Source of the DNA: Minisyncoccota bacterium
Lineage (GTDB): Bacteria; Patescibacteriota; Microgenomatia; UBA1400; PJMF01
Reading direction: 5' to 3'
NCBI GenBank assembly: GCA_018646985.1
Contig: JABGTR010000004.1
Coordinates: forward strand, 2,946-66,945
Length of the DNA stretch: 64,000 nucleotides
Part shown: piece by piece, positions 7,287 through 43,584 of the stretch
How the letters are laid out: every line of letters begins with the position of its first letter
Position numbering within the stretch: position 1 is the stretch's first letter
Translations under genes and position numbers: made by a program
The notes under the pieces: generated by a model
Database searches by the model: none
What the model saw: the letters and a program-made list of their open reading frames with translations, nothing else
Told to the model about the DNA's origin: nothing

Positions 7287-7291
7287 TTCAA

Positions 7292-7624: not shown

Positions 7625-7632
7625 ATCTTAAG

Positions 7633-8481: not shown

Positions 8482-8483
8482 GT

Positions 8484-8888: not shown

Positions 8889-8901
8889 AGTTCTTTACGT
8901 T

Positions 8902-10034: not shown

Positions 10035-10319
10035 TTAAGTCTTAGTAGCTGTTCGTTTCACCATTCTGCCGTGACCTCTAAAAGTACGAGTCAAGGAGAA
10101 CTCACCTAATTTATGTCCGACCATGTCTTCAGTGCAAAAAACTTCTTTGAACTCTCGACCCTGATGGACTGCAAAAGTATGTCCGACAAACTCAGGAGCA
10201 ATAGTACAATCACGAGACCAAGTCTTAATTGGAGTTTTTTGTCCAACCTGCTTTTGCTTCATGACCTTAGCGATTAGCTTTGGGTCAACATGTGGTCCTT
10301 TTTTACTTGATCTTCCCAT
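10035..10319 (-). CDS. rpsS: 30S ribosomal protein S19
   Basis: 94 aa; [11 protein letters not shown]...GHTFAVHQG conserved S19 motifs. Confidence 0.95.
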
Positions 10320-10339
10320 ATTTTTTGTCTTGTCTTACT

Positions 10340-11173
10340 TTATATTTTAACTCTTCTATCTCTAATAATAAACTTGCTACTCTTACGTTTACCACGAGTC
10401 TTTTTGCCCAAAGCATGTTTACCCCAAGGAGTCTTAGGATATTTCATACCCACCCCAGATCTACCTTCACCTCCTCCATGAGGATGTGAGCCTGGATGTT
10501 GAGCAACACCTCTCACGGTTGGACGGATACCCATCAATCTCTTTCGACCAGCTTTACCAATCTTTCGATTCTTCCAATCGTGATTTCCAACCTGGCCAAT
10601 TGTAGCGTAGCACTTGAGGTTAATCAAACGCAGCTCTTTAGATGGTAATTGGACAGTCGCATACTTACCTTCTTTAGCTTGGACATAGGCTGCTGTCCCT
10701 GCTCCACGGACTATCTGAGCACCTTTGCCTGGTGTCATCTCAAGATTATGAATCGGAATACCAATCGGCACATTACGTAACGGCATGGCATTACCAGTCT
10801 TAATCTCAACTTTTTCTCCAGCAATAACTTGATCGCCAATATTCAATTCGTCTGGGGCAACCATATATTTCTTTTCACCATCTGGGTAGATGATCAAAGC
10901 AATATTAGCGCTTCTCATTGGATCGTACTCAATTCTCTCGACTCGACCAGCAATATCTCGTTTTCGACGTTTCCAGTCAATAATACGCATTCTTTTCTTC
11001 ACCCCACCACCTCGATGACGCATGGTAATGTGACCTTTATAACCACGACCCTGACGTTTCTTATGGCCCTTGGCTAATAAAGATTTCTCTGGCTCACCTT
11101 TGTATAGATCGCTGCGATCTAAGACAACTTGGTGGCGAGTTCCAGGAGTAGTTGGTTTTCTTTTCTTTAACAT
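10340..11173 (-). CDS. rplB: 50S ribosomal protein L2
   Basis: Conserved L2 core (GRNxxGxITxRHRGGGxKRxYR). The ORF runs to 11194, but the ATG at 11173 (MLKKRKPTTPG) matches canonical L2 N-termini and removes the overlap with rplW. Confidence 0.93.
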   Translation of the reverse strand: MLKKRKPTTPGTRHQVVLDRSDLYKGEPEKSLLAKGHKKRQGRGYKGHITMRHRGGGVKKRMRIIDWKRRKRDIAGRVERIEYDPMRSANIALIIYPDGEKKYMVAPDELNIGDQVIAGEKVEIKTGNAMPLRNVPIGIPIHNLEMTPGKGAQIVRGAGTAAYVQAKEGKYATVQLPSKELRLINLKCYATIGQVGNHDWKNRKIGKAGRKRLMGIRPTVRGVAQHPGSHPHGGGEGRSGVGMKYPKTPWGKHALGKKTRGKRKSSKFIIRDRRVKI

Positions 11174-11174
11174 A

Positions 11175-11471
11175 TTATTGGTTGTAAATATCAAATAATT
11201 CTATATTGTCACCTTCTTTAAGAGTTGCCATAGCTTTTTTAACTTGGGCAATTTGCTTCTCTAAACGACGCTTGCCAGTTTTCTTAACACTTACATTTCT
11301 AGTAGTAGTGTTAATTCTCAATACAGTTACGCTATAAAGCTCTTCAATTGCTTCTTTGATTTGCTGCTTATTGGCTAATCGATCTACTTCAAAAGTGTAG
11401 GTATTGCTTGCGTTAGCCAGCTGCATTGATTTTTCAGTAATGATTGGTCGTTTTAAGATATATGGATTCAT
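11175..11471 (-). CDS. rplW: 50S ribosomal protein L23
   Basis: 98 aa between rplD and rplB. Confidence 0.88.
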   Translation of the reverse strand: MNPYILKRPIITEKSMQLANASNTYTFEVDRLANKQQIKEAIEELYSVTVLRINTTTRNVSVKKTGKRRLEKQIAQVKKAMATLKEGDNIELFDIYNQ

Positions 11472-11473
11472 TT

Positions 11474-12127
11474 TTAGCTATCTTTTTTGACTACTTTAAT
11501 ATGCTTAGCTAATTTTTCTTCAAGCTGTTTGAGAGCGTCTGTGGTGATAATGATCTTATCAGCTAAAGAAACCTCGTAGATATTGATTCGCTGTGCTCTA
11601 GTCACCACCACTCTTTGAATGTTTCTCAAACTTCTGATTATTTCTGGATTAGACTCAGTCAAAACAACTAAGATTTTTTCATTTTTATCTCTGATCTTAC
11701 TAAGCAACTCTACAGCTTGCTTGGTCTTACCAGTTAGCTCATTGAAGCCATCACAGACGACAATATTTTTTTGCTGAGCACTTAAAGCAGAGATCAATGC
11801 TTGAGACTTAAAACGTTTGGTGAGCTTAAGCTTCCAATTAGATAGGCCAGTTGGGCCATGGGCCACACCACCACCTACAAAAATTGGAGCATTTTTAGAA
11901 CCATGACGAGCATTACCAGTTCCTTTTTGAGCATATGCCTTCTTTTTAGTGCGGTTAACAGCAGATCTGTTTTTGACTTTACTAGTTCCTTGACGTTGAT
12001 TGGCTAAATAAACTCGAATGCCTTGAGAGAGCAATTTCTTATTTACTTCAGCATTAAAGACAGTTTCACTGGCTGTGACAGCAGTCTTACTTTTAGCACC
12101 AGTTTTTGTATAAGTAGTTAATTTCAT
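11474..12127 (-). CDS. rplD: 50S ribosomal protein L4
   Basis: 217 aa; expected position and L4-like pattern. Confidence 0.9.
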   Translation of the reverse strand: MKLTTYTKTGAKSKTAVTASETVFNAEVNKKLLSQGIRVYLANQRQGTSKVKNRSAVNRTKKKAYAQKGTGNARHGSKNAPIFVGGGVAHGPTGLSNWKLKLTKRFKSQALISALSAQQKNIVVCDGFNELTGKTKQAVELLSKIRDKNEKILVVLTESNPEIIRSLRNIQRVVVTRAQRINIYEVSLADKIIITTDALKQLEEKLAKHIKVVKKDS

Positions 12128-21459: not shown

Positions 21460-24400
21460 TTACTCCTGCTCCTTAGTGTCTGTATTTAATTTTTCTTCTG
21501 TAGACTCAACAGCTTCCACCTCTTCTTTCACATCAGCTGTGTCATCTGCGACAGCATCATCAGTTGTGTCATCAGTAGCAGCGGTATCATCATCGTCAGT
21601 GGTTGTGTCATCGGTTGCAACTGCATCATCAGTTGTAGCTTCAGCACTTGGCTTTACTTCTTCTATCTGCTCTTCAACTTCATGGGGAATAACATCTAGC
21701 CCAAGTGAGTTCAACTCTCTGACTAAAACCTTGAATGATTCTGGAACTGTTGGTGCAGGAATTTCTTCACCCTTAACCATAGCTTCAAAAGCTCTACCTC
21801 TACCTTTAACGTCATCTGATTTGATAGTTAGCATTTCCTGAAGTGTATGAGCGGCTCGATGAGCTTCTAATGCCCAAACTTCCATTTCTCCCATTCTCTG
21901 ACCACCCATTTGAGCTTTTCCACCCAAAGGCTGTTGAGTTACTAGAGAGTATGGTCCAGTAGAACGAGCATGAACTTTATCTTCTACCATATGAGCTAAT
22001 TTTAGAATGTAACCAATACCAACTACAGTTGATTCTCTAAACTTTTCACCAGTTCGGCCATCAAGGAGCTGTGTTTTACCAGATCTAGGTAGACCGGCTT
22101 CTTCTAAAGAATCCCAAATTTTACCTTCATCAATTTGCTCAAACGGAGGAATAGCCACATTATAGCCTAGATTTTTTGCTGCCCAAGCCAAGTTGGCCTC
22201 TAACAATTGACCTAAATTCATACGAGCTAAAACTGAAAGTGGAGAAATAATAATATCGATCGGAGTACCATCTTCCAAATGAGGCATATCTGCCTGTGGC
22301 ACAATCTTAGAAATGACCCCTTTATTACCATGACGACCGGCTAACTTATCACCCACCGTAATCTTACGAGTCTCAGCTACCCTGACGGTAACTTCCTTAA
22401 GAGTTCCTGGATCAAGCTCATCGCCTTTTTCGCGATCTAAAACTTGAACATCAATGACTGTCCCAGTAGTACCATGAGGCAAACGAAGTGAAGTGTTTCT
22501 AACTTCTCTGGATTTTTCACCAAAGATAGCTCTGAGTAATCTTTCCTCTGGAGAAAGCTCTGTTTCTCCCTTAGGAGCAATCTTACCAACCAAAATGTCT
22601 CCAGAAGCAACTACGCTTCCATTTCTCACAATACCATCTTCAGTTAAGTTAGATAAATATGATTCTGAAACATTAGGGATATCATTAGTCAGCTCTTCAG
22701 ACCCAAGCTTGGTGTCCATTACTCTAGATCGGTATTCGCTAATATGAACAGATGTCAATGAATCATCTTTTACTAATCTATCAGAGATAACGATAGCATC
22801 TTCATAGCCTAAGCCCTCAAAAGAACTATAAGCAATCAATAAATTAGAACCTAAAGCCAACTCTCCATTATCTGAAGATGGGCCATCGATAATTACATCA
22901 CCTTTTTTAATCTTATCGCCAACTTTAACAATTGCTCGTTGAGAGTAAGAAGTGCTTTGAGCAGTTCTTTTAAAAGTAGTCAATTTATAAATGTCTTTAC
23001 CTTTTTCAAAAGAAACCTCTTCAACGTGACGATAATCTTCTTTATTAACTTTTTTGAGTTCTTTTCCATCAATTTTAATCGTTACTTTATTGCCATCAAC
23101 ATACTCAACTTCACCACCATGCCAAGCTTTAACAGTTCTGCCCATAGCACAAGCCACCACACCTTCCATACCTGTTCCCACTATCGGAGCATCAGTTCTA
23201 ATTAAAGGCACAGCTTGACATTGCATATGAGTACCCATTAAGGCACGATTGGCTTCATCATGGTCGATAAATGGAATTAACGAAGCAGAAGTACCGATCA
23301 CCTGAGATGGAATAACATCGATGTACTCAACTTCTTCGACTGAGCCTTCAATGAAATTATTCATGTAACGGATTGGAACCCAATCGTCAGTAATATATCC
23401 ATTGTCATCGATATCCACTCCAGCATGAGTGATTTTGTGATCTTCTTCATCAGCAGCATTCATGTAAACAATCTCATCTGTCACCTTCATCTTACCCTTA
23501 CGATTTTCCACTCTTAAATAAGGAGCTTCTAGAAAGCCAAACTTATTCACATGAGCAAAAAGAGCTAAATAAGTTACTAGACCAATGTTTGGTCCTTCTG
23601 GAGAACGAACTGGGTCAATTCTAGAGTATTGAGAAGCATTGATGTCACGCATTGAGAAGGAAGCTCTCTCTCTGGTTACTCCACCACTACCCATAACTGA
23701 TAAACGACGTAGATTATCAATTTCAGCCAAAGGATTAGTTTGATCTAAAATAGTTGAAAGACGATTCCTGCGGAAGAATTCTGAGATGGTGGCAATTAAA
23801 GGTCTAGCATTTACCAAAGCAGCTGGAGTTAAAACTTCATCAGTTTTAGTCAATGACATTTTTTCTCTAATTGAACGCTCTAAACGGATTAAACCAATTC
23901 GGACAGCACTACCCTGAACCAACTCACCAACTCGTCTTAAACGGCGATTGCTAAGATGGTCAATATCATCAACTTTACCTTTTCCATTTTGCAAACCAAT
24001 TAAATATTTAATACTAGAAATAACATCTTCTTTAGTTAAAACAGTTACGTGATCTTTAATATCTAGTTTTAAGCGACTATTGAGCTTATAACGACCTACT
24101 TCGCCCAAATCATATCGGCGAGCATCAAAAAACAATTGGAATAAATAGTCTCGAGCAGTATTTAAAACGGCTGGCTCACCAGGACGCATTTTTTCATATA
24201 ACTCAATCAAGGCTTCTTCTTCTGTTTTAGTACTATCTTTAGCAATCGTGTTCACTAGCAAATCGTGCTCATCAAAACCAATCTCATCAGCAAACAGCTC
24301 CATTAATTCTTCGTCAGAGCCATAGCCCATTGCTCTCAATAAAACAGTAGCTGGCATCTTACGACGACGATCAATTTTGACTGATAAAACTTGACGTTTA

Positions 24401-25125: not shown

Positions 25126-26103
25126 TCATCGCAAGTAGCGTTGAACGTTTGAGTTATGTTCTTCCAAATTCTTACCATAGTGTATCCCACCATCCCCGCC
25201 ATGTAAATAGAAAAAATTAGCTGTATCTAGAGGATTGAGGGCAGCTTTAATTGCATCTAGCCCAGGATTACATATTGGCTGAGGTGGCAAACCGTAATTG
25301 AGGTAGGTATTAAAGGGTGAATCAAGCTTTTTATCAAAACTAGTGGGTGGCTCCCACCAAGATTGAGCTTGCTTATCATAGCCTTTGACATACTGGAGTG
25401 TCGCATCAGCTTGGAGAGCCATATCAATATCGTATCTGTTCCATAAAATTCCAGCTACATGACGCATCTCTTCATAGCCTCTGGCTTCTCTCTCTACTAT
25501 TGAAGCCATAACTAAAGCATCATCAAAGCTTCGCTCTGATTTCTTGATCTCATCCTCTAATCCAACGGTGACTTTTTTCTCAAAGTTATTTTGAATGACC
25601 TGATGAACTTTGGTGGCAGTAGACTCTTTCGCGAAAAGATAAGTGTCTGGAAAAGTTTGTCCCTCCTGGCCCAATGCTAAACTCATAAATTCATCACTAT
25701 CAACCATGCTTAATCCATACTCTGCAAAACTAGCCGCAACTTGCTCAAGACGCCAGCCCTCAAGAATAGTCACCCAAACGTCATCAGTACCTTGGGTAAG
25801 CTTGAGAGCAATTTCAGCTGGAGTCATGGACGAAGAAACTTCGAATGAACCAGATTGAAGCTTGGATTCAAGACCTTGTTGTTTAACTACCAAACGGAAA
25901 ATGATTGAACTTTTAATTAGACCCTTTTCCTTTAATCTAGAAGCAATGATGCTGACTGCCTGACCACGGGGAATCACAAATTGGGTTTTAGCTGTGGTAT
26001 CTGTAGTCATGGGCTGAGAAAAAAGATAAAAATAGCCAACAAAACCCAAAACTAAAACAAAAATCATAGCTGTAATTGTGGCGAGAAGTTTTTTAAAAGG
26101 CAT
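25126..26103 (-). CDS. mltG: endolytic murein transglycosylase MltG (YceG family)
   Basis: 325 aa; N-terminal TM helix; YceG-like blocks (WVTILEGW, ASIVEREA). Confidence 0.8.
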   Translation of the reverse strand: MPFKKLLATITAMIFVLVLGFVGYFYLFSQPMTTDTTAKTQFVIPRGQAVSIIASRLKEKGLIKSSIIFRLVVKQQGLESKLQSGSFEVSSSMTPAEIALKLTQGTDDVWVTILEGWRLEQVAASFAEYGLSMVDSDEFMSLALGQEGQTFPDTYLFAKESTATKVHQVIQNNFEKKVTVGLEDEIKKSERSFDDALVMASIVEREARGYEEMRHVAGILWNRYDIDMALQADATLQYVKGYDKQAQSWWEPPTSFDKKLDSPFNTYLNYGLPPQPICNPGLDAIKAALNPLDTANFFYLHGGDGGIHYGKNLEEHNSNVQRYLR

Positions 26104-26118
26104 GAAAAAAGTATAGCA

Positions 26119-26502
26119 CTATAGATTCTCATCCATCCACTCTCGTAGGAACTCTGCTGCTGCATAGTGATCAATGGGACCCTGTCGTTTCTTGAGTTTC
26201 ATATGTGAAGTAGCCAGTTTTTGATGAATATTTTTAGAACTGAGAGTTTCGTCAGCAAACTCTATGGGGAGAGCAGTTGTTTTCTTTAATTCTTTAGTAA
26301 ATTCTTTGATTTTTTTGGCCATCTCATTTTCTGACATCCCCACTAAAATCAAATCTATCTCTTCTCGCTCTAAAACTTGCTTGAGCTTCTCAAACATTAG
26401 CTCATTATTGTCAATAATTTTCAATGGCTCTGCCAAACTATGTCTGCTCACAGCTAAACCAATTCGCTTGGTTCCAAAATCAATGGCTAATATTTTTTTC
26501 AT
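26119..26502 (-). CDS. ruvX: Holliday-junction resolvase-like protein RuvX/YqgF
   Basis: 127 aa; MKKILAIDFGTKRIGLAVS RNase H-like N-terminus typical of YqgF. Confidence 0.85.
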   Translation of the reverse strand: MKKILAIDFGTKRIGLAVSRHSLAEPLKIIDNNELMFEKLKQVLEREEIDLILVGMSENEMAKKIKEFTKELKKTTALPIEFADETLSSKNIHQKLATSHMKLKKRQGPIDHYAAAEFLREWMDENL

Positions 26503-26505
26503 AAG

Positions 26506-27453
26506 CTAATTATTCACCAACTCTGCAGTTACTACTCCTCGACGTAGATAAGTTCCCTCTGGAACACAAGTTACCAGCTTAAGCTTCCGATCATCATATT
26601 GCTGAGCCAAAATATAAGTATCTTCAGGCTTAACATCAGTTTTATCTGTTACTCGATATTTGTATTTAGCTCCATCTTGAGTCAAGAAAATTTCAGCTCC
26701 TTTTTCTAAGGTCATAATATAACTAAAAATGGAGTTATAGCGACGAGGATTCTTTTCACTGGGATTATAAAACTGTCGCAAAACTGAGTGCCCAAATATA
26801 ACTGGAGATCCTAACTCTCCTGGGAAAGCTGTTCCTGGATAAGCAATTAAGCTTTCATCTAAATTCATCCCACCAATTTGAACATGAGCATCTTCTATCT
26901 CCAGCTCAGGAATACTTAATACATACATAGTGTTGTTTTGAATCTTTCTCAAGGCATCGCTTCTGCCGTCATTAAACCAGTTGGTTAAGTTCGTGTAATC
27001 TAGCTCAGTGTCCAAAATAACCGGACCAGTTGTTTTTGATTTAGAGCCTAGTACTGCCGAGCCATGCTCTACTTGAGATATAACTAGTGGTGTTACGTCC
27101 AGAACATCTTCTTTAGGGATAGGTGCTTTAAGCTGATTCTCACTTAAATTTGGTAAAGATGAAAAATAGTATTGAGCTAGTGGCGCGATTGCATTGCCCA
27201 ACAAAAATAATCCGACTCCAATAAAAACCATTGGCAAAACCAAGGCACCGTACCTAATTGTCTTGGGAAGACGATGTCTTATTTTAGAAACTCGCTCCCG
27301 CTCTTCTTTTTGCTCTACCTTTTGACTAACTGACACTTTGTCCAATTTTTTAGATATTTTTTTTTCGAGCTTATTTAAAGATAAATTTTTTTTTAAAGCC
27401 TGACGATATAAGTCTACTAACTTAGCTGAAGAAATTTGATTTATCTGCTTCAC
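26506..27453 (-). CDS. sortase family transpeptidase
   Basis: 315 aa; N-terminal TM segment; conserved His (VIFGHS) and catalytic TLxTC-like motif (KLVTCVP), followed by an Arg (YLRRG). Confidence 0.75.
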   Translation of the reverse strand: MKQINQISSAKLVDLYRQALKKNLSLNKLEKKISKKLDKVSVSQKVEQKEERERVSKIRHRLPKTIRYGALVLPMVFIGVGLFLLGNAIAPLAQYYFSSLPNLSENQLKAPIPKEDVLDVTPLVISQVEHGSAVLGSKSKTTGPVILDTELDYTNLTNWFNDGRSDALRKIQNNTMYVLSIPELEIEDAHVQIGGMNLDESLIAYPGTAFPGELGSPVIFGHSVLRQFYNPSEKNPRRYNSIFSYIMTLEKGAEIFLTQDGAKYKYRVTDKTDVKPEDTYILAQQYDDRKLKLVTCVPEGTYLRRGVVTAELVNN

Positions 27454-29603
27454 TTTATTTCTACCTTAGAAAAATCTGTGGGGATGCGAGCATAAATTTT
27501 AGCAGCTATACTAGGGATTAAATCAATTTTTACCGATTTAACACCATCATCGGCTGTTAGAAATCTCTTGGCTTCATCAATACTCTTACCCAAGATAGAT
27601 TTTTTTAATTCTTCTAAATCTAGATCTGGCTTTGCTTCTGAGGTGATATTAACTAATAGTTGGACCTCTCCAGATACGGATGATTCTTGGTCTGGAGCAG
27701 ACATAATCTGCGGCTCACTGTTAGCTATAGTATATCCGTCAGGAACGTCATCCTCGAGTACACTTTGAGCTAAAGGCTTCAAATCTTCTGTTCTATAAGA
27801 TAGAGCTTGCACCGTTATTGATAAATCTAGAGTCAAAACTCCAATTTCATCAGCAATTTCAGCATCAAATTTTTGCTCATTGATTTTAGAAATATTTACC
27901 GAAGCAATGTACTCACCTTCATCTAGGCTCTTCTCTATTTCATCTTGAGCTTCTGCCAATAACTTTTTTCTTAAATCTTCAATCAACTGATCTCGATCAC
28001 TTGATGATACAACCCTAACTTCACGACTAGAACCACCGCTGAAAGCTTCTACCGTGGTTGCTGAGTAAGTGCCAGGATCAAAGCTAGCCACTTGCAGCTC
28101 AATCTCCTTCTCTATATTTGAATCTGCGCCAATGGCAGCCGCTGTTACTTTCACGTTGTTTTTACCATACTCTGTCTCTTTACCACTAGATGTTTCTTTT
28201 GTACTCGCCGAAGCCACTTCCACAATATCATCTAAAGTAAAAACTAGATCACCTTTGGAAATCTTTGTGCCTTTATCAAAAGATTTGACTGCTTCAGTTT
28301 TGTTGTAAAGAGTAATTTCTCCAATAGCTTGATCGCCAACAACTTTTACCCCAGTAGTCTCTTTAGTTTTCTTATCTGAAACTTTTTTATCGATCGTATC
28401 AGCTATTAAGACTAACTTGTTAGCATCAACACCATCTGATTCTGAACTGAGAGTGATTATAGTCTCCTTTGAGATTAACTCTGTCGCCAGCGACAGCCTA
28501 ACCACTGCCTTCACTCCTGAAGTCAACCATACTCCTGCTACAACCAACAAGGTCACTATGCCTGCAAAGAAACCACCAATAGCAAATGAGCGATGTTCTC
28601 TAAACCAATTATTAAATTTCATTTTTGTTTGTGAAGATTTTTCTATTTTTGAATCTGATAAGTTTACCTCATCTTGAGACTTAAGTTCAGGTTTAATTTT
28701 ATGATCAAGTTTATTTAAACTAACTGGCACTCCATAGCTAGTAGGCTCAACATTGGCAACTGTTGTCTCCTGGGAATCAATCTCTACCGCAATCTCGCTA
28801 GCCTCAACCATCTCTTTTTTTACTGGTTTTTCAGCAACCTTAGAAGCGATAGTTGGATTTTCAACCGAGTCACCTCCTCCTTGCTTAATAACTGCCTCTA
28901 AAATCATCTCTTTATCTAGTAAATCTACTGTTGGGGAATGAACAAAAGGATGTGAATTGACCCAATCATGACTAAGCAAAAGCTGTTGCTGATCTTTTAA
29001 TTCAGACTCATCCAAATCTAGAGATGAAAGAATTATCTTTGCCGGCAACTTAATCTCTTCTTCATGATGAGCGTTAAGTCTTGCCAAGGCTTCAGTCATA
29101 TCAGCCATAGTTTCACCAGAACGACCTACATACTGAGTGCTAGTTAGCTTCCCTTGAACAATTAGGCTTAAAAATAACTCATATTGGCTGAACTCAACCA
29201 AGAGTGCAGATAAACGAGGATCTCCAGCCACTAGTTGCTTGGATAAAGCTTCGGAGGTCATCACAAATCCAACTGCACTTAAATCTAATCCTTCCGTAAT
29301 CGACTTCAAGATTGGTTTTTTAATAGCTATCACTCCTTGATCATCTGCCCAAGTGCGTGGCAAGCCAAAAACAATATCATTGACTTTCTCCGATTGTTTG
29401 CCTAAATTTTGCAAAGCCTTATCCGCTTGAGTCACAGCTTGATCATCATCGCTATACTCATAAATTGTGGATTTACTTAAAACAGCAATTCCCTGATTAT
29501 CCTGCTGCCATAAAGCTGCTTGAAGATTAGAATCAGACAATAAAATTGTAATGTATAAAGAAGTAGCTGGTTGTTTGGTTTTGAAAACTGGCGGCAGACC
29601 CAT
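27450..29603 (-). CDS. membrane protein: actin-like (PilM/FtsA-type) cytoplasmic N-terminal domain, single TM helix, ~370-aa extracytoplasmic domain
   Basis: The ORF extends to 29732 but would overlap alaS; the likely start is the ATG at 29603 (MGLPPVFK...). The N-terminal region has FtsA/PilM-like blocks (LYITILLSDSNLQAALWQ; ITEGLDLSAVGFVMTSEAL). TM helix FAIGGFFAGIVTLLVVAGVWL. No LPXTG at the C-terminus. Stop/start ATGA overlap with the sortase gene. Confidence 0.5.
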   Translation of the reverse strand: MGLPPVFKTKQPATSLYITILLSDSNLQAALWQQDNQGIAVLSKSTIYEYSDDDQAVTQADKALQNLGKQSEKVNDIVFGLPRTWADDQGVIAIKKPILKSITEGLDLSAVGFVMTSEALSKQLVAGDPRLSALLVEFSQYELFLSLIVQGKLTSTQYVGRSGETMADMTEALARLNAHHEEEIKLPAKIILSSLDLDESELKDQQQLLLSHDWVNSHPFVHSPTVDLLDKEMILEAVIKQGGGDSVENPTIASKVAEKPVKKEMVEASEIAVEIDSQETTVANVEPTSYGVPVSLNKLDHKIKPELKSQDEVNLSDSKIEKSSQTKMKFNNWFREHRSFAIGGFFAGIVTLLVVAGVWLTSGVKAVVRLSLATELISKETIITLSSESDGVDANKLVLIADTIDKKVSDKKTKETTGVKVVGDQAIGEITLYNKTEAVKSFDKGTKISKGDLVFTLDDIVEVASASTKETSSGKETEYGKNNVKVTAAAIGADSNIEKEIELQVASFDPGTYSATTVEAFSGGSSREVRVVSSSDRDQLIEDLRKKLLAEAQDEIEKSLDEGEYIASVNISKINEQKFDAEIADEIGVLTLDLSITVQALSYRTEDLKPLAQSVLEDDVPDGYTIANSEPQIMSAPDQESSVSGEVQLLVNITSEAKPDLDLEELKKSILGKSIDEAKRFLTADDGVKSVKIDLIPSIAAKIYARIPTDFSKVEIK

Positions 29604-29652: not shown

Positions 29653-31476
29653 TTACTTAAATTTGGCGTAAACTCGACGTACACCGGCACTACATGACTG
29701 TTCTTTAAAGAGCATAATCTGGCCAATTTCACCTATCTTACCAACATGAGGACCACCACAGAGCTCTTTAGAAATACCTTCAATTGTATAAACAGTCACC
29801 TCATCTGGGTATTTTTCAATAAAAAAAGCGACTGCTCCTTCATTAAGAGCTGCTTGTTTGCTCATGACTTGTTTTATGACCGGGAGATCACTCTTTATCC
29901 AGGTGTTAATTTGAGCTTCTATTTGATTAATTTCATCTTTAGTTAGAGCTTGAGGATGAGAAAAATCAAATCTTAAACGATCTCCATTGATATTGGAGCC
30001 TTTTTGTTCCACATGAGTGCCTAGAATCTTACGTAAAGCAGCATGAAGTAGATGAGTGGCAGTGTGATACTTAACCGTGGCCTCAGATTGATCACCCAAG
30101 CCACCTTTGAACTTATCAGTTGAAGCCTGACGGGACTTATCAGCGTGAGACTGCTTAAGTTGATTGAATTTAGTTTCAATATCATCTTCAATCTTCATAT
30201 CTCGACGTTGCGCTTCTTCTATAGACATCTCCAGAGGAAAACCATAACTCTCATAGAGGTTAAATGCAGTGGCGCTAGTCAAACTATCCAAGTCTTCTTT
30301 TTCAAAAACTCGCAAGCCTTTAGTTAAGGCTTTTTGAAATTTTTTCTCTTCTGTGGCGAAAATTTGTTGAATGTTTTTTACTTGATCAATAACTTTGGGG
30401 TAAGGAATTTGGTAGATAGCTGCTATGACGGGTACTAAACCAGAAACAAATTCATTCTCGATCCCAATCATCTGACCATAACGGATAGCTCTTCTAATTA
30501 AACGACGAGAAAAATACCCCTGCTCTTTATTGGACGGATAAACTCCGTCTGCAGCCAGCATAACTGCTGCCTTCATATGATCAGCGATAACTCTAAATGC
30601 TTGAGTGGTTTTTTCATCCTGATTATATTTTTTACCAGAAGTTTCTTCCAAATAACTAATTATGGGCATGAACAGTTCGGTTTTAAACACATCAGGATCG
30701 TTATTCATGGCTGCTAGAATACGCTCGAATCCACCGCCAAAGTCAATGTTTTTGTCTTCCAACTCCTTGAAGCCACTAGCTGTTTTGACATAAGTCATAA
30801 ACACATTATTGCCAATCTCTAGATAGCGACCGCAGTCACAATTGAGATGACATTCTTGATCAGAAAACTGCGAGTTTTCATGATCTTTGTAGTCTATTCC
30901 AAAATCATAGAAGATTTCACTGTCAGGACCACCTGGCTCTCCATTTGACATATTAGATGGCTCACCAACTCGAGACCACCAATTTTCATTTCCATAATAA
31001 TAAACTCGTTGATCAGTAATACTTTTTTTAGCAAATAAATCTTTCCAGATCTCAGCTGCTTCTTCATCGCGAGCAATACCTAACTCTTGATTTCCCTCAT
31101 AAGCTGTCACGAAGAGTCTCTCTGGATTTAGTCCACAGATATCTGTAAAAAACTCAAAAATCCATTCTAACTGCTCTTTTTTAAAATAATCTCCAAAAGA
31201 CCAATTGCCTAGCATCTCAAAAAAAGTAGTGTGACGATTGTCACCCACTTCTTCTATATCCTGAGATCTAAAGCATTTTTGTGAATTAACTACTCGTGTC
31301 CCTTTAGGATGAGGCTGACCTAAGAAATAAGGTAAAAGTGGCTGCATCCCTGAACCAGTAAAAAGGGTCGTTGGATCATTGTCTGGCACTAGAGAATCAG
31401 AGGGTAAAACGGCGTGTTTTTTTTGAACAAAAAAATCTAGATATGCTTGGCGAAGTTCGTCTGGAGTCATAGGCAC
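29653..31476 (-). CDS. alaS: alanine--tRNA ligase, truncated form lacking the C-terminal C-Ala domain
   Basis: 607 aa; class II AlaRS N-terminal catalytic core; C-terminal editing-domain motifs HTATHLLHAAL and CGGPHV; ends soon after the editing domain. Confidence 0.9.
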   Translation of the reverse strand: MPMTPDELRQAYLDFFVQKKHAVLPSDSLVPDNDPTTLFTGSGMQPLLPYFLGQPHPKGTRVVNSQKCFRSQDIEEVGDNRHTTFFEMLGNWSFGDYFKKEQLEWIFEFFTDICGLNPERLFVTAYEGNQELGIARDEEAAEIWKDLFAKKSITDQRVYYYGNENWWSRVGEPSNMSNGEPGGPDSEIFYDFGIDYKDHENSQFSDQECHLNCDCGRYLEIGNNVFMTYVKTASGFKELEDKNIDFGGGFERILAAMNNDPDVFKTELFMPIISYLEETSGKKYNQDEKTTQAFRVIADHMKAAVMLAADGVYPSNKEQGYFSRRLIRRAIRYGQMIGIENEFVSGLVPVIAAIYQIPYPKVIDQVKNIQQIFATEEKKFQKALTKGLRVFEKEDLDSLTSATAFNLYESYGFPLEMSIEEAQRRDMKIEDDIETKFNQLKQSHADKSRQASTDKFKGGLGDQSEATVKYHTATHLLHAALRKILGTHVEQKGSNINGDRLRFDFSHPQALTKDEINQIEAQINTWIKSDLPVIKQVMSKQAALNEGAVAFFIEKYPDEVTVYTIEGISKELCGGPHVGKIGEIGQIMLFKEQSCSAGVRRVYAKFK

Positions 31477-31479
31477 AAA

Positions 31480-31815
31480 TTATACACCTTTGAAATGTTT
31501 TTGTTTTGCTTGTCGATTATAAATCCTCTTCTTGCGTGGCGCCTTTTCTTTTTTGATTTCAGCTGGTTCAACCTCTAACTTCTTTAGCAGCTCATCCTTG
31601 GCTAGCTGAATTAGATCACCTAAGTTATCAAATTTAATATCCTTACCCAAGACTCCTTTATCAGTTAAATGCTGCTGCGCACTTTCCCATTCGCTAACTA
31701 GTTTTTTTCTAGTTTTTTCACCCCGCTTGGTTCCAAATAGATAATAGCCAACCACACCAGAGAAAAGACCTAAAGAAAAACCGGGTACGAATGAACTATG
31801 GTTATTTTTTTCCAC
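31480..31815 (-). CDS. YtxH-like small membrane protein
   Basis: 111 aa; N-terminal hydrophobic segment, then GTKRGEKTRKKL and a charged helical tail, as in the YtxH family. Confidence 0.45.
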   Translation of the reverse strand: MEKNNHSSFVPGFSLGLFSGVVGYYLFGTKRGEKTRKKLVSEWESAQQHLTDKGVLGKDIKFDNLGDLIQLAKDELLKKLEVEPAEIKKEKAPRKKRIYNRQAKQKHFKGV

Positions 31816-32086
31816 TAGCTTTAGTTTCCTTATCTTTATTTAACCAGCCTACAAAAGCCTCAAAAACCTTCATCCCTGTTCCTAAGCCTGAAGCAAGACC
31901 AGAAATTTTCTGCAAAGGAGCTGCTATGGCCGCAATTTTGGCATCAGCAGTTTCTAGCGCATCATTAACCTTCTTGAGCGTCTTTTTTAATTCTAGTAAA
32001 ACTAATACCATCTGCACCCCAACCACACTTAAAACGATGGTTAAAGCTACTAAAGCAACGGCAAAAATTGTTGGAACTAAGTCCAT
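31802..32086 (-). CDS. DUF948-like small membrane protein
   Basis: 94 aa; N-terminal TM helix plus coiled-coil; 14-nt overlap with the downstream YtxH-like gene (the ytxG/ytxH-type pairing seen in Firmicutes). Confidence 0.4.
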   Translation of the reverse strand: MDLVPTIFAVALVALTIVLSVVGVQMVLVLLELKKTLKKVNDALETADAKIAAIAAPLQKISGLASGLGTGMKVFEAFVGWLNKDKETKASGKK

Positions 32087-32131: not shown

Positions 32132-32776
32132 TCAAAACTTCACCCGGACTGAGCGCTGAACCAAGATAGTCTTACCACGACGGTCCTGGGACTCTATCGA
32201 GATGGTATTTATTCCTTCACGAGGCAAATAAACTTCTGTCTCAAAAGAACCGTCTGTTTGCAAAGCCACTGGTTGAGAATTAACAGTTACAATCGCATCA
32301 ATGTCAGTCTGCCCACTCACACCAACTCTAGCAGCAACTAAAGAATCTTCTATTGGCAACATTATCTTCAGCTCTGGAGGCTGAGCTAACAGATACCATT
32401 GAAAACCAGCGTAGCTAATCAAGGTAATGAAAGTTAAAGCTAGTCCTAGAACTACAAAAGTAGCTGGACCCCAATTTTGACGCTTCTTCAGGATAGGTTT
32501 AATAAATTCACGAGGCACCAACCGTCCCTTAACACTTTCTTTAAAATCCCTCCTTAGAAGAGCTACTAAAGGCTGATGGTCAAAACCAAATAATTGAGAG
32601 TAAATTTTAATATAACCCCTCACAAAGGTAGCTGCTGGGAGTTGATCAAATTGGTTATCCTCTAAAGCTCGCAAATACTTCTCTTTAATCCGAGTTTTTT
32701 TAGCCAACTTCTCAATTGATAAGCGGTGTTTTTCCCGCTCATCTCTTAAAATTTCACCAATGGTTTTGGTTTTCAT
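32132..32776 (-). CDS. rodZ: RodZ-like cytoskeleton protein (XRE-type HTH, TM helix, C-terminal domain)
   Basis: 214 aa; N-terminal HTH (TIGEILRDEREKHRLSIEKLAKKTRI), central TM helix and a beta-rich C-terminal domain. Confidence 0.65.
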   Translation of the reverse strand: MKTKTIGEILRDEREKHRLSIEKLAKKTRIKEKYLRALEDNQFDQLPAATFVRGYIKIYSQLFGFDHQPLVALLRRDFKESVKGRLVPREFIKPILKKRQNWGPATFVVLGLALTFITLISYAGFQWYLLAQPPELKIMLPIEDSLVAARVGVSGQTDIDAIVTVNSQPVALQTDGSFETEVYLPREGINTISIESQDRRGKTILVQRSVRVKF

Positions 32777-32780
32777 AAGT

Positions 32781-33227
32781 CTAGACTGCTAAAGCTTGAC
32801 GCACTAATGACGAAACTCGCCCGCCATCAGCTTTACCTTGCACTTTAGCCATTACCTGACCGATTGTGGGTCCCATTTCTGGATTTTCTAAACTGCTCAA
32901 AACTTCATCGACAATCTTTTGAAGATCTTCATCTGACATTTGTTCTGGCAAATAAGATTTAAGTATTTTCAACTTAGGCTCTTCTTCTGCCACCAAATCA
33001 TCTCTACCAGCTTTTTGGTACTCAGCAATAGATTCTTTAACTTGCTTGACTTGTTTGGCAATAATTTTTTCAATCCCAGCGTCATCCTGCTCACCGTTAT
33101 CTATTTCAAAATTTTTGATCTCTGATCTTAAAAAACGAACTACGCCCAGCTTAACCTTGTCACCAGCCTTCATGGCCTGCTTCATATCTTCTACTAATTG
33201 TTGACTAAAAGACATATTTCCTTTCAT
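32781..33227 (-). CDS. GatB/YqeY domain protein
   Basis: 148 aa; MSFSQQLVEDMKQAMKAGDK... typical YqeY helical protein. Confidence 0.8.
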   Translation of the reverse strand: MKGNMSFSQQLVEDMKQAMKAGDKVKLGVVRFLRSEIKNFEIDNGEQDDAGIEKIIAKQVKQVKESIAEYQKAGRDDLVAEEEPKLKILKSYLPEQMSDEDLQKIVDEVLSSLENPEMGPTIGQVMAKVQGKADGGRVSSLVRQALAV

Positions 33228-38560: not shown

Positions 38561-40255
38561 ATGAAAGCAAAACTTACCCAACTAGTATTTCCTCTACTAC
38601 TAGTTATTTTCTCTTTAGTGATCCTCAGACCTTTGTTCTCCGAACAACTGCTCTATACTGACGATGCTGAACTCCATGCTGCTCGAGTTGCCAACTATTA
38701 CTTGGCTGTTAAACAAGGCCAAATACCGCCTCGATTAGCACCAAATCTTGATAGCGGCTACGGATCATCAGTTTTAAACTTCACCTATCCCTTGCCCTAC
38801 AGTATCAGCACCCTGATTTATATGGCGCTACCAGTGACAATTGTGCTGGCTTTAAACTTAACTATCATCATCCTTGTACTTTCTGGCGTTTTAGGTGTTT
38901 ACTATTTAGCCCAAAAATTTTCTTTAAAACCACGGCACTCAGCACTTGCCTCTTTGATCTACTTAACTGCGCCCTATACCTTAATTAATATCTACTCACG
39001 CACTGCCCTAGGTGAAATAGCATTTTTTGCCGTACTTCCATGGGTAATGTGGAATATAGAACATTTCATGGGAGGTAAAAAAGTAAAACCAATAGTCTCT
39101 TTGGCTCTAGTAGGAAGCCTAGCTCTACTTTTACTAAGTCATCAAACATCCCTGATTATTTCAGCCCCAGTTTTAATTACCTACTACCTACTGCGCGCAA
39201 AAAATAAAAAGCAGGTCATCACTTTAATTAAACGAATCATCCCACTAGCAGCTATTTCTCTACTAATTACAGCTTGGTACTGGCTACCTGCTTTAATAGA
39301 AAAAAAGTTTGTAATTCTTGATAGAGCAGACACAGTCACTCACTACCTGGATCAGTTTCCCAATCAATGGTCATTCTTTTTCCACAAAATAAAGAACTTA
39401 GAAAGACTAGATGTTCTTAAAATTGTTTCCATTGGTTATAGCAACTTGCTCATCATCCTGATTAGCCTGTGGCAAATCATAAAAAACAAAAGTAAAAGTA
39501 GAAAAGAAGTTAAATATTTATCAATCATCTTTTTTTCAACTATCATTCTGATAATGCCTTTTACTAGACCTCTCTGGTTAGTTTCAGGATTGGGTCAGTA
39601 CATTCAATATCCATGGAGGTTGCTCTCTCTGGTGACCTTAAGTTCTACCTTACTCTTCATTCATCTCACTAAAAATAAATTGATTAACAACTTTTTTATC
39701 GGAGTAATATTAGCAACTAGTTTGCTTTCAGCAGTTGTCTATGCTCAGCCCCGTGGATTTCAAAGCTGGAGTGACTACGAGCTCTTTGAGTATTTTAAAA
39801 CCACGACTACTTTTAATGAGTTCCAGCCGATTTGGGCAGCCGAATATACGAGACATTTCCCACAAGAAAAAATTTCTCTCAGAGTTCCTGAGAAGAGCTT
39901 GTATAACGATGATGTCTTGCAAACAGCTGAATATGCACAACTAAAAATTCAAAAATGGAATGGCTCAGCAATGAGCTATGTCATTGACACCGAAAAGCCA
40001 GTAGAAGCAATTCAAAAAACTTACTATTTTCCAGGATGGGAGTTGGTGGTCGATGGACAAAAACGAGTAATTCAATATCAGGACGAAGAGTTTCCTGGGC
40101 ATATTACTTATTCATTAGACCCAGGAAAGCATCAAATAGAACTTAAATTTACAAACAATACTCCTCCTAGAAAAATAGGCTTTGCCTTAACTTTAATAGG
40201 AGCACTTAGCCTTTCAGGCTATTTATTTTGGCATAAAAAAAATGAGTCACTTTAA
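38561..40255 (+). CDS. polytopic membrane protein, putative GT-C-fold glycosyltransferase
   Basis: 564 aa; ≥10 predicted TM helices with a large extracytoplasmic C-terminal domain; N-terminal region resembles the PMT/ArnT/YfhO type. Confidence 0.4.
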   Translation: MKAKLTQLVFPLLLVIFSLVILRPLFSEQLLYTDDAELHAARVANYYLAVKQGQIPPRLAPNLDSGYGSSVLNFTYPLPYSISTLIYMALPVTIVLALNLTIIILVLSGVLGVYYLAQKFSLKPRHSALASLIYLTAPYTLINIYSRTALGEIAFFAVLPWVMWNIEHFMGGKKVKPIVSLALVGSLALLLLSHQTSLIISAPVLITYYLLRAKNKKQVITLIKRIIPLAAISLLITAWYWLPALIEKKFVILDRADTVTHYLDQFPNQWSFFFHKIKNLERLDVLKIVSIGYSNLLIILISLWQIIKNKSKSRKEVKYLSIIFFSTIILIMPFTRPLWLVSGLGQYIQYPWRLLSLVTLSSTLLFIHLTKNKLINNFFIGVILATSLLSAVVYAQPRGFQSWSDYELFEYFKTTTTFNEFQPIWAAEYTRHFPQEKISLRVPEKSLYNDDVLQTAEYAQLKIQKWNGSAMSYVIDTEKPVEAIQKTYYFPGWELVVDGQKRVIQYQDEEFPGHITYSLDPGKHQIELKFTNNTPPRKIGFALTLIGALSLSGYLFWHKKNESL

Positions 40256-42087: not shown

Positions 42088-42828
42088 ATGTCATCTGATA
42101 GATTTTTAACCAGTAACCTAGGAACCATTCTTTTAGCAATAGTTTTTTTTGTTAGTGGATTCTTTGTTGGTACTCTTTGGACAGAAAACAAAATGTTAAA
42201 GCTAGGTGGAGGCCCATCTCAAAAACAAGCTGGTCAACTAGCTGAAGCACCCACTGAAGCTCAAGCCCCAGATACTTTAAGTGAAATGCCAGAGATTTCC
42301 GATGAAGATCATATAATTGGTGCTAAAAACCCTAAAATTTACTTAGTAGAGTACTCAGACTATGAATGCCCTTTCTGTGAAAGATTTCACCCTACTACCA
42401 AGCAAATCATAGAAAAATATGGTGACGATGTGGCTCTAGTATTTCGTCACTACCCATTAGGCTTCCACCCCAATGCTCAATCAGCAGCAGAAGCTGCAGA
42501 GTGTGTTGCTAATAGAAGTGGAAATGATGCGTTTTGGAAATATACTGATGAGATATTCTCACAAAATGAACAGCTGGGAGGGAAGCTTAGTCCTGAAGCC
42601 ATCGATGCTGCCATCGCAGCTAGCGGAGCTAATACAGCTGCCGTTAAGGGATGTCTCGAAAGTGGAGAAATGACAGAAGTAGTCACTGCTCAACAAAATG
42701 GCGGAGCTGCTGCTGGAGTCTCTGGCACACCAGGAACGATTCTACTCACTGTTGATGGAGAGTCTGAACTTATTAGTGGAGCATTACCATTAGTTCAAGT
42801 AGAACAAATAATTGAGAAATATCTTTAA
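42088..42828 (+). CDS. DsbA-like thiol-disulfide oxidoreductase (thioredoxin fold, CPFC active site), membrane-anchored
   Basis: 246 aa; N-terminal TM helix; YSDYECPFCERFH active site. Confidence 0.8.
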   Translation: MSSDRFLTSNLGTILLAIVFFVSGFFVGTLWTENKMLKLGGGPSQKQAGQLAEAPTEAQAPDTLSEMPEISDEDHIIGAKNPKIYLVEYSDYECPFCERFHPTTKQIIEKYGDDVALVFRHYPLGFHPNAQSAAEAAECVANRSGNDAFWKYTDEIFSQNEQLGGKLSPEAIDAAIAASGANTAAVKGCLESGEMTEVVTAQQNGGAAAGVSGTPGTILLTVDGESELISGALPLVQVEQIIEKYL

Positions 42829-42834
42829 TACCTA

Positions 42835-43584
42835 ATGGGACATAGCATCTTCGATGGTTCTCAAGTTAATTTCCTAATTGCTTTTTTAGCTGGAATTACA
42901 ACTTTCTTTGCTAGCTGTTTACTACCATTAGTCCCAACTTATCTAGCTTATTTGTCTGGAATAACTCTTAATGATGAACACGCCAGTCAAAAAAAGTGGC
43001 AGGGATTCAAAACCGGCCTCATGTTTGTGATTGGTTTCATTATTACTTTCATGATTCTTGGGTTGACTGCAAACAAATTTGCGAGTGTTCTTCATCCCTA
43101 TAGACAATTCATTGAAAAAGTAGCTGGAGTTTTATTTATTGCCTTAGGTTTCTTTATGATGGGAATATTTAAAAATAATCTCCTATCACGAGAGAAGAGA
43201 TTTAATGTTCAGGGAAAATTTAAAAAACATCGTTCTCTACATGCTATCTTGACAGGGATTGCCTTTGGTTTTGGTTGGACACCATGCATAGGACCAGTCT
43301 TAGCAGTGATTCTATTTTGGGCAGCTCAAGCAGATTCTGCTTTAAAAGGAACTATGCTACTCACTTCGTATGGAGTTGGGTTGGGAGTTCCCTTTCTGAT
43401 CATTGCGCTGGGATTTGAAAAAATAATTCCTTGGATTAAAAAACATCACCAAATTTCTCGAATCACCAGTTTCATCTCTGGATTGTTTATCTTAATTACT
43501 GGAATTTTACTATTTACAGATCAGCTTCAGGCACTATCCTTCTATTTGCTAAATTTCTTTAATCTAAGTGCATTATCTACCTAA
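42835..43584 (+). CDS. ccdA: cytochrome c-type biogenesis/thiol-disulfide transporter CcdA (DsbD transmembrane-domain family)
   Basis: 249 aa; 6 TM helices with conserved Cys in TM1 (FFASCLLPL) and TM4 (WTPCIGP). Confidence 0.8.
   Translation: MGHSIFDGSQVNFLIAFLAGITTFFASCLLPLVPTYLAYLSGITLNDEHASQKKWQGFKTGLMFVIGFIITFMILGLTANKFASVLHPYRQFIEKVAGVLFIALGFFMMGIFKNNLLSREKRFNVQGKFKKHRSLHAILTGIAFGFGWTPCIGPVLAVILFWAAQADSALKGTMLLTSYGVGLGVPFLIIALGFEKIIPWIKKHHQISRITSFISGLFILITGILLFTDQLQALSFYLLNFFNLSALST

Follow-up and report, generated by a model that had tools for sequence, protein, structure and literature searches.

The stretch of DNA analyzed here, referred to as the window, comprises 64,000 nucleotides (nt) of a Minisyncoccota bacterium of the Microgenomatia (assembly GCA_018646985.1, contig JABGTR010000004.1, positions 2,946 to 66,945), and contains, between alaS and ruvX, a gene for a large membrane protein that is followed immediately by a sortase gene. 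The large protein is bitopic and belongs to a very large superfamily centered on the Patescibacteria, and its Microgenomates-type form is, according to profile comparisons, the fusion of a paralogue of the FtsA family with a neighboring membrane partner. The cytoplasmic domain is a reduced pseudo-ATPase derived from this FtsA-family paralogue, of which only the core halves, 1A and 2A, are left, and the extracytoplasmic domain (ectodomain) is a distant, cellular, membrane-anchored homologue of the baseplate wedge proteins of contractile tails (gpJ/gp47/gp6), and not a phage gene. Almost without exception, genomes with the fused form have the sortase gene coupled to it in a way that indicates co-translation. 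The role preferred here, with a probability of roughly 0.45, is that of a trans-envelope scaffold, in which the large protein would tie a cytoplasmic element of the FtsA type to processes on the side of the wall, among them the action of the sortase.

Anatomy of the large protein and of its sortase

The large gene (27450-29603, on the minus strand, as is every gene between 21 and 33 kb of the window, to which all coordinates refer unless another locus is named) begins with the ATG at 29603, which has the Shine-Dalgarno sequence GAGGT 11 nt upstream, and encodes 717 amino acids (aa), essentially the ~718 aa of a preliminary description of this DNA, made from the sequence alone. The gene call is based on open reading frame (ORF) and start-site reading, homologues, and an AlphaFold2 (AF2) model; a longer ORF from the GTG at 29732 was rejected, given that it would run into alaS. 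The AF2 model, built with a 45-sequence alignment, has a mean predicted local distance difference test score (pLDDT) of 83, and consists of two confident domains (residues 10-245 and 364-717), a disordered region (246-330), and a helix (338-363). The single transmembrane helix, FAIGGFFAGIVTLLVVAGVWL, occupies residues 340-360 (28524-28586), where a hydrophobic segment coincides with the AF2 helix. The basic residues that precede this helix (KMKFNNWFREHR), together with the lack of a signal peptide, place the N-terminus in the cytoplasm, so that one transmembrane helix and a big outer domain are found where the preliminary description had expected them.

The disordered region is a cytoplasmic linker rich in K, S, and E (28614-28868; pLDDT 30-47), the flanks of which cannot be aligned around a motif, (T/S)S(F/Y)G(V/I)P (the SYGVP type, residues 288-294, 28722-28742), that is kept in most of the 45 aligned members of the family. 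By analogy, this motif looks like a docking peptide, such as the tails of PilN or FtsZ that bind actin-like partners. At the other end of the protein, no sorting signal was found, as previously described, and there is no transmembrane helix after the conserved C-terminal motif [RK][LIV]P.D...KI.[IV]. The LP.D within this motif might have been a hidden sorting signal, but this reading was rejected, as the motif forms a strand of the fold, is followed by nothing hydrophobic, and is shared by relatives that lack a sortase.

A sequence identical to that of the large protein has been deposited in NCBI from a metagenome-assembled genome (MAG) of Candidatus Pacebacteria, and a word-indexed search recovered 54 clusters of full-length relatives of ~690-790 aa, from Patescibacteria or unnamed metagenomes, all of which are named "hypothetical". 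A profile search of 1.84 billion representatives returned 12,451 matches at E<=1e-3 and 4,306 at E<=1e-30, which amounts to a superfamily of more than 12,000 clusters at 50% identity, and the best 150 of the 12,451 matches are nearly all end to end, to proteins of 687-825 aa. The possibility that the long ORF is an assembly-error fusion, raised in the preliminary description, is excluded by the identical MAG protein, the 54 full-length clusters, the end-to-end profile matches, and the matching composition of the locus, the guanine-cytosine (GC) content of which, 0.365-0.385, equals that of its surroundings and is thus native. The protein has no family in NCBIfam, no match in PHROGs, and no relative in IMG/VR.

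The cytoplasmic domain has the actin-like, FtsA/PilM-related character claimed for it, although the folded part covers residues 10-245 (28869-29576), rather than ~330 aa, the remainder up to residue 330 being predicted as disordered. This minimal core of the ASKHA (actin-fold) type was recognized through Foldseek searches of the PDB, its secondary structure, and hhalign. In the AF2 model, the order beta-beta-beta-alpha-beta-alpha-beta-alpha occurs twice, with no inserted subdomains (1C/SHS2, 2B), and the Foldseek matches, at E ~1e-7, include EutJ (3h1q), BT_3980 (3hrg), Ppx/GppA, PilM (5eq6), ROK kinases, ParM, and MreB. The "ATPase blocks" of the preliminary description were not borne out, given that the nucleotide-binding motifs (phosphate 1 DxG, phosphate 2 DxGGG, and adenosine GGG) are replaced by SDSN, EFSQYE, and SSLD, and the domain is not an ATPase by its sequence. 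As all three motifs are replaced and no subdomains are inserted, the domain is almost certainly a minimal, nucleotide-free actin fold, as far as the sequence and the model predict. With a threshold as permissive as E<=1, the 45 members still gave no match to the actin-family Pfam models, including PF14450 (FtsA) and PF02491 (SHS2_FTSA), and the PilM_2 and GspL models matched neither the window protein nor the 45 members.

The ectodomain (residues 364-717, 27453-28514) lies outside the membrane, as proposed, but the ~370-aa, beta-rich domain of the preliminary description proved to be 354 aa of mixed alpha/beta structure, with the three-subdomain organization of the baseplate J/gp47/gp6 proteins. 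Modeled by itself, it reached a pLDDT of 91.9 and a predicted template modeling score (pTM) of 0.69. In the PDB, Foldseek aligned it over 340-370 columns, with both proteins covered essentially end to end, to the wedge or "triplex" proteins of contractile tails (E 5e-7 to 1e-4), including the diffocin triplex (8v3w_0, 5e-7), cyanophage A-1(L) (8kea), phi812 (9euf), Mu gp47 (9ki1), XM1 (7kh1), phiCD508 (9g8s/9gb2), and Pa193 (9b45), while the matches in BFVD are Baseplate J-like proteins. The fold and the order of the subdomains thus follow those of Baseplate J, Mu gp47, P2 gpJ, T4 gp6, and the diffocin triplex from one end to the other, and the barrel motifs A.G.v...N....G...GG are weakly common to the ectodomain and the wedge proteins. 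The Pfam model PF04865 weakly matched 27 of the 45 members (best 7.8e-6), and some relatives carry a precomputed PF04865 assignment; a sequence-profile search of the PDB with the family alignment returned nothing but a marginal match to gp47 (E 3.1). Unlike the wedge proteins, the large protein is the product of a chromosomal core gene, is anchored in the membrane, and faces the exterior of the cell, with no hub, sheath, tube, gpI, or TssG nearby, and no tail, tailocin, or type VI secretion system genes were found close to the large gene, either in the regions of the window that were scanned or in the conserved gene block described below.

The sortase gene (26506-27453, 315 aa) starts at a GTG (27453) that overlaps the TGA stop codon of the large gene by 4 nt (GTGA, 27450-27453); the overlap itself had been described correctly, but had been read as ATGA. 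The assignment of this neighbor as a sortase was confirmed by the PF04203 model (69.8 bits against a cutoff of 26.6, E 2.2e-19) and by the catalytic region (26530-26796), where an alignment of 67 locus-linked sortases is at least 90% conserved at the His of FGHS (26785-26796), the Cys of LVTCVPEG (26554-26577), and the Arg of LRRGVV (26530-26547). A basic, helical cytoplasmic tail of ~65 aa is followed by a transmembrane helix (residues 68-90, 27184-27252), a ~90-aa linker with a conserved NWF motif, and the catalytic domain (180-313). The basic tail is found only on the Pacebacteria-type sortases (313-325 aa), the Woesebacteria-type enzymes having 219-250 aa. The NCBIfam class models (A-F, GN) gave 20-40 bits against cutoffs of 135-166 (best class C, 39.6 against 160), the generic TIGR01076 gave 38.4 against 39.35, and the best PDB matches are enzymes of the SrtA/SrtD type, at ~2e-5. 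The enzyme therefore resembles the housekeeping sortases (class A/class E type) in its PF04203 domain, its His-Cys-Arg triad, and its type II membrane topology, and differs from them in failing the class cutoffs, in its ~65-aa tail and NWF linker, and in having a partner without a sorting signal. It is predicted to be catalytically intact, divergent, and membrane-anchored.

Homologues of the sortase form 1287 clusters, named sortase or sortase A, and sortases are near-universal in the Microgenomates (PMC6744442). Among the closest relatives, the sortase is 86-87% identical where the large protein is 76% identical, and it remains at ~54% where the large protein is at ~35%, so that, of the two sequences, that of the sortase is the more conserved. 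Elsewhere in the window, an ORF at 38561-40255 encodes a protein of 564 aa with no Pfam match, an N-terminal transmembrane segment or signal peptide, and a C-terminal transmembrane segment followed by the basic tail HKKNESL, which is laid out like a sorting signal but has no LPXTG-like pentapeptide.

Conserved order, sortase coupling, and the split form

The arrangement of the locus was compared in six look-ups of contigs encoding homologues and in 71 loci from GTDB species representatives, the latter having been sought with the 21 closest members of the 45-member alignment. The block YqeY, RodZ-like, small transmembrane protein, YtxH, alaS, large gene, sortase, ruvX, mltG, (rpoB) is found in nearly all of these loci, in more than 60 species representatives, under record names that include Pacebacteria, Woesebacteria, Microgenomatus, and Shapirobacteria, and with large proteins that share as little as ~25% identity. 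The pair thus travels with alaS, ruvX, and mltG, as the preliminary description had suggested it might. A complete block of the Pacebacteria/Woesebacteria type is also found under titles that seem to be taxonomically wrong, in CP011212.1, titled "candidate division TM6 bacterium GW2011_GWF2_28_16", and in dozens of MAGs of "uncultured Pseudomonadales/Gammaproteobacteria".

In 66 of the 67 fused-type loci with at least 1 kb of downstream DNA, the sortase adjoins the large gene, and in 64 of these 66, the distance from the stop of the large gene to the start of the sortase is between -11 and +19 nt (most commonly +5, -4, -1, and -8), which bears out the operonic or translational coupling inferred from the window. 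The pair stays joined where other genes intrude into the block. In one locus (L001), for example, a HepT/NTP_transf_2 toxin-antitoxin pair (6948-7852 of that locus) lies between alaS and the large gene, and MurL/Mur-ligase genes lie between the sortase and ruvX, while several loci have 2-3 kb inserted ahead of mltG. Genes for MurJ, and for MurL or Mur ligase, are found nearby in relatives. The only fused-type locus without a sortase (L006) has a convergent MurJ flippase gene (10255-11889 of that locus) after the large gene. In the Pacebacteria MAG UBA1364 (L034), the sortase is split into two ORFs (8142-8489 and 8498-9013 of that locus), owing to a sequencing error, to a frameshift, or to its being a pseudogene.

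Four loci, from the Saccharibacteria (L070 and L077), the Dojkabacteria (L075), and an unassigned lineage (L005), contain a split form, in which the homologue of the large protein is shorter (500-657 aa) and has no actin-fold domain, but consists of an N-terminal domain of ~80-100 aa, an acidic linker, a transmembrane helix, and the same ectodomain. This short homologue lies directly upstream of ruvX in L005, L070, and L077, with alaS upstream in L005 and L077, whereas neither alaS nor ruvX was detected in L075, and no sortase adjoins it in any of the four. The insertion between alaS and ruvX that had been described is thus no local novelty, given that a homologue of the ectodomain protein fills the same slot in the Saccharibacteria and in one unassigned relative. 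The sortase goes with the fused form, being present in 66 of its 67 loci and in none of the four split ones, although this association may stem from only one or two evolutionary events. The short homologues of L005, L070, and L077 have a conserved start, IIYI..EDDITsvI.kI…vvL.iP….l.qS.vNLkLL, with no Pfam match. Their small, STAS-like N-terminal domain may dock the separate FtsA-like protein. The Saccharibacterial subfamily alone comprises more than 3,460 clusters, all named "hypothetical".

Directly upstream of the short homologue, the split loci have a separate gene for an actin-like protein of 401-421 aa. Three of the four proteins match the Pfam FtsA model PF14450 at 1e-13 to 1e-16, with PilM_2 weaker (3e-8), while that of L070 has no Pfam match; against the PDB, the L077 protein matches FtsA best (7q6f, 7.9e-16), followed by PilM at 2.3e-9. 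The motifs DIGTE, D[IV]GGGTTD, and CGGG are kept in the proteins of L005, L075, and L077, two of which end in a tail that looks amphipathic. When the profile of the cytoplasmic domain of the fused proteins was compared with the four separate proteins, hhalign aligned them over 239 columns and the whole template, with a probability of 97.7% and an E of 1.7e-12, against 0.1-10.6% for control alignments of the sortase, the ectodomain, and RuvX. The template insertions that the cytoplasmic domain lacks correspond to part of 2B and to ~80-90 aa where FtsA has its 1C subdomain. A C-terminal signature, LL..dW....PF...P.V..L, is common to both, and in phmmer searches, the FtsA-like protein of L005 matched a Woesebacteria large protein directly (2.4e-6).

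It follows that the Microgenomates-type protein arose through the joining of this FtsA-like paralogue to the membrane protein encoded next to it. The fusion was accompanied by the loss of the ATP-binding motifs and accessory subdomains, and the transmembrane link replaced the membrane-binding tail. As two neighbors were joined in this way, the paralogue of FtsA would act with its baseplate-J partner as a single trans-membrane unit.

An apparent counterpart of the split form can be found in published data on Southlakia epibionticum, in which the order of the locus is alaS (SEML1_0657), SEML1_0656, SEML1_0655, RuvX (SEML1_0654), and MltG (SEML1_0653) (Wang et al., Cell 2023, PMC10633639, Tables S1/S2). 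There, SEML1_0656 is a protein of 427 aa with an FtsA domain, named "pilus assembly protein PilM" (K03590), and SEML1_0655 is a "baseplate J/gp47 family protein" of 556 aa, in which ECOD recognizes a SpoIIAA-like (STAS) domain at 6-105, a beta-barrel, a G3P-like domain, and "gp6 C-terminal domain III"; both belong to families flagged as core and Patescibacteria-enriched, and neither is mentioned in the main text of that paper (PMC10633639). In its transposon sequencing (Tn-seq) data, SEML1_0655 was called non-essential (NE), essential (ES), and ES at T0, T1, and T2, with normalized reads of 373, 34, and 24, which makes it class II essential by the definition of the paper, while SEML1_0656 was NE, NE, and GD (normalized reads of 2427, 660, and 221), and MltG was NE at all three points (PMC10633639). 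As the canonical FtsA (with SHS2) and FtsZ of this species are encoded at SEML1_0174/0175, and the PilM and PilN of its type IV pilus, both class I essential, at SEML1_0104/0105 (PMC10633639), SEML1_0656 represents a third actin-like paralogue. The pair resembles the window module in its slot between alaS and ruvX-mltG, in the family to which its transmembrane helix and ectodomain belong, and in its FtsA-like partner, and differs from it in that the genes are split, the ectodomain protein starts with a small SpoIIAA/STAS-like domain, and there is no adjoining sortase.

Neighboring genes in the window

The order of the genes on the minus strand is YqeY, RodZ-like, a 94-aa transmembrane protein, YtxH-like, alaS, the large gene, the sortase, ruvX, mltG/yceG, and rpoB, with Pfam models matching AlaS, Sortase, RuvX, and YceG at the genes so named. 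The conserved upstream block consists of YqeY (32781-33227, Pfam), the RodZ-like gene (32132-32776), the product of which combines, according to Pfam, an HTH_25 domain, a transmembrane helix, and a Glucodextran_B-like domain, the small DUF948-like transmembrane protein of 94 aa (31802-32086), and the YtxH-like protein (31480-31815, Pfam). The alaS gene (29653-31476; Pfam tRNA-synt_2c and tRNA_SAD) ends 49 nt ahead of the large gene; its product, of 607 aa, has the catalytic and tRNA_SAD domains without a C-terminal domain of the DHHA1 type, and is similarly short, at ~600-670 aa, in all the relatives in the compared loci. Downstream of the pair, ruvX (26119-26502; Pfam RuvX, synteny) follows 3 nt past the stop of the sortase, and mltG/yceG (25126-26103; Pfam YceG, synteny) follows 15 nt past ruvX, so that the four intergenic distances from alaS to mltG are 49, -4, 3, and 15 nt.

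Scans of the window for promoter and terminator consensus sequences gave matches at chance level only, and a flip in the sign of the GC skew near 33 kb was discounted, as it merely tracks the switch in gene strand. The C-terminus of RpoB (21460-21650) has a long, acidic, low-complexity tail rich in T, D, and A (…ATTDDAVATDDTTTDDDDTAATDDTTDD…EEVEAVE…). At 42088-43584, a DsbA-like thioredoxin adjoins a DsbD-type membrane protein, forming an extracytoplasmic disulfide system; in the Candidate Phyla Radiation (CPR), MdbA-like proteins have been tied to sortase-dependent surface proteins (Meheust et al. 2019).

Possible roles of the module and their significance

Contractile-tail wedge proteins, such as T4 gp6 and Mu gp47, form rings through subdomains of the type found in the ectodomain, and RodZ normally binds the actin homologue MreB, which makes the RodZ-like neighbor a candidate partner of the degenerate actin fold. 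A trans-envelope scaffold is favored here because fused neighbors would act as a unit, because wedge proteins oligomerize, and because MltG, the RodZ-like protein, MurJ, and MurL/Mur ligase are wall-synthesis factors. In such a scaffold, the dead actin-fold domain would dock on a cytoplasmic partner, an element of the FtsA/FtsZ or MreB/RodZ type, perhaps through the conserved SYGVP-type linker motif, while the wedge-like ectodomain would oligomerize on the outside, as do its phage relatives, to form a platform at the interface between the wall and the membrane. This platform may position the dedicated sortase, and perhaps MltG, which is co-transcribed, wherever the cell divides or makes new wall, so that surface proteins would be anchored where lipid II is available. 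The module would then be a housekeeping system, neither mobile nor a pilus motor.

The large protein resembles FtsA in its ASKHA fold, its attachment to the membrane, and its transitive homology through the locus-linked FtsA-like paralogue. It differs from FtsA in that it has no 1C/SHS2 or 2B subdomains, no nucleotide-binding motifs, and no match to the FtsA Pfam model, and in that its membrane anchor is a true transmembrane helix, rather than the C-terminal amphipathic helix of FtsA. Neither ftsZ nor ftsA was found in the regions of the window that were scanned, and the large gene is not located beside ftsZ.

A number of observations weigh against the scaffold. The cytoplasmic domain lacks precisely those subdomains through which FtsA binds FtsZ (2B) and the late divisome proteins (1C), and any link to the divisome would therefore be non-canonical. 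The relationship of the ectodomain to the baseplate proteins is weak in sequence, with the window protein reaching 17.5 bits against the PF04865 cutoff of 21.1 and no match in PHROGs, while the Foldseek alignments have a high root-mean-square deviation and template modeling (TM) scores of ~0.2, which are attributed to differences in subdomain orientation or hinge angles between elongated, multi-subdomain proteins. The check for LPXTG-type substrates, applied to the 64-kb window, yielded only a spurious antisense ORF with a C-terminal signal, and no sortase-type motif specific to the sortase-coupled ectodomains was found. Gene order can persist in streamlined CPR genomes without a functional link, and SEML1_0655 is an apparent counterpart of the window family on the basis of synteny, length, and annotation.

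Alternatively, only the neighborhood may have been inherited, in which case the large protein and the sortase would be independent housekeeping proteins of the envelope, kept adjacent by operon inertia, with the sortase anchoring unrelated LPXTG-type proteins encoded elsewhere and the large protein serving some separate purpose. The genes alaS, ruvX, and rpoB share a block with no evident functional link to each other, no substrate was found in the window and no motif in the coupled family, and the homologues in the Saccharibacteria, the Dojkabacteria, and the unassigned relative work without an adjoining sortase. This explanation is nevertheless unlikely, given that 64 of the 66 loci keep the junction at -11 to +19 nt, even where the large proteins share only ~25% identity, that the pair remains joined amid intruding toxin-antitoxin, Mur-ligase, and other genes, and that the sortase is found in 66 of the 67 fused loci and in none of the four split ones, even though this last contrast may represent only one or two evolutionary events.

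A role in the assembly of a pilus is somewhat more doubtful. The large protein would, in this case, be an alignment component of the PilM-PilN/GspL kind, linking a pilus motor in the cytoplasm with a collar outside the cell, and the baseplate-like platform would be the place where the sortase builds or anchors a fiber or pilus. Baseplate wedge proteins do serve as platforms for fibers, and the large protein shares the design of GspL and PilM-PilN, with a nucleotide-free actin-like domain in the cytoplasm, one transmembrane helix, and an outer domain, although the resemblance is one of design only, given that there is no match to the GspL, PilM_2, or PilN models, no secretion or pilus genes are found nearby, and the outer domain is a 354-aa baseplate-J-like structure, rather than a small ferredoxin-like domain. 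PilM structures are found among the fold matches of the cytoplasmic domain, the split partner has a match to PilM_2 (3e-8) and receives the name "pilus assembly protein PilM" from annotation pipelines, and ECOD groups one subdomain of SEML1_0655 with a pilus-binding domain. The same split partner, however, scores better with FtsA than with PilM, and pili built by sortases are not known to require an actin-like factor in the cytoplasm. The check for type IV pilus genes came back empty in the window, and pilB, pilC, pilT, pilN, pilO, pilin, gspE, and gspM are absent both from the regions scanned and from the conserved block, while the PilM and PilN of S. epibionticum are encoded elsewhere and are class I essential, unlike SEML1_0655/0656. 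Of the "division or pilus-assembly module" of the preliminary description, which is a matter of inference either way, the evidence thus leans toward a role of an FtsA paralogue in the envelope, rather than toward a pilus. A pilus of the CPR named "Pam" (bioRxiv 10.64898/2026.03.03.709456) was considered as a related system and set aside, as it is chaperone-usher-like and unrelated.

It is improbable that the two proteins are an enzyme and its target, with the large protein itself being the substrate or acceptor of the sortase, and its ectodomain either cleaved from the transmembrane anchor or linked to the peptidoglycan through a non-canonical signal. Dedicated sortases with a single neighboring target do exist, one example being the "marine" sortase of class GN with its adjacent target, and translational coupling would match the stoichiometry of such a pair. 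The anchor of the large protein is N-proximal, however, and its C-terminus has neither the hydrophobic nor the basic part of a sorting signal; the LP.D motif found there is shared with the sortase-less relatives, and the coupled family shows no specific conservation of an LPXTG-like pentapeptide. A phage or tailocin remnant, or an assembly artefact, with no cellular role, which the fold and the weak Pfam similarity to phage baseplate proteins might suggest, can be dismissed for practical purposes, and the prophage and mis-assembly readings were rejected, given the lack of nearby tail genes, the alaS-ruvX position fixed in more than 60 species, the native composition, the absence from IMG/VR and PHROGs, the end-to-end profile matches to homologues, and the essentiality of the apparent Saccharibacterial counterpart in Tn-seq.

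In its design, the module resembles the membrane-tethered actin-fold scaffolds (FtsA, PilM-PilN, and GspL), but does not qualify as a member of any of these groups. Its components are known folds, and the Saccharibacterial relatives have already been annotated automatically and listed in a Tn-seq table. In the searchable literature, no description was found of the module, of the relationship between its split and fused forms, of an extracellular baseplate-J homologue, or of an invariant coupling to a sortase in the Microgenomates, and the pair thus appears to be uncharacterized, as had been proposed. That it represents a new type of envelope machine is a tentative suggestion, on the doubtful side, and the same can be said, with no greater confidence, of the broader scenario, in which the Patescibacteria would have recruited a phage baseplate-wedge protein as a core cellular platform on the outside, controlled from the cytoplasm by an FtsA-type actin paralogue, and in which the dedicated sortase of the Microgenomates would build or anchor a lineage-specific surface or septal structure on the fused form.

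The CPR/Patescibacteria account for a large share of bacterial diversity, and a superfamily of more than 12,000 clusters at 50% identity is located here in a core operon of a lineage in which division and the building of the envelope are little known. Of the Patescibacteria-enriched genes that are needed for growth on the host, one is the apparent counterpart in the Saccharibacteria, and the pattern of fusion and splitting ties, in a concrete and testable way, a paralogue of FtsA to a baseplate-like module outside the cell, while the invariant coupling in the Microgenomates points to a partner for a CPR sortase. As the split form is present in a genetically tractable Saccharibacterium, the question is directly testable. 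If the scaffold were confirmed, it would represent an unusual case of a structural fold of contractile tails serving as a housekeeping component of the cell surface, and, under the broader scenario, the module would be an envelope machine of a new kind, important for the growth of these ultrasmall, host-dependent bacteria.

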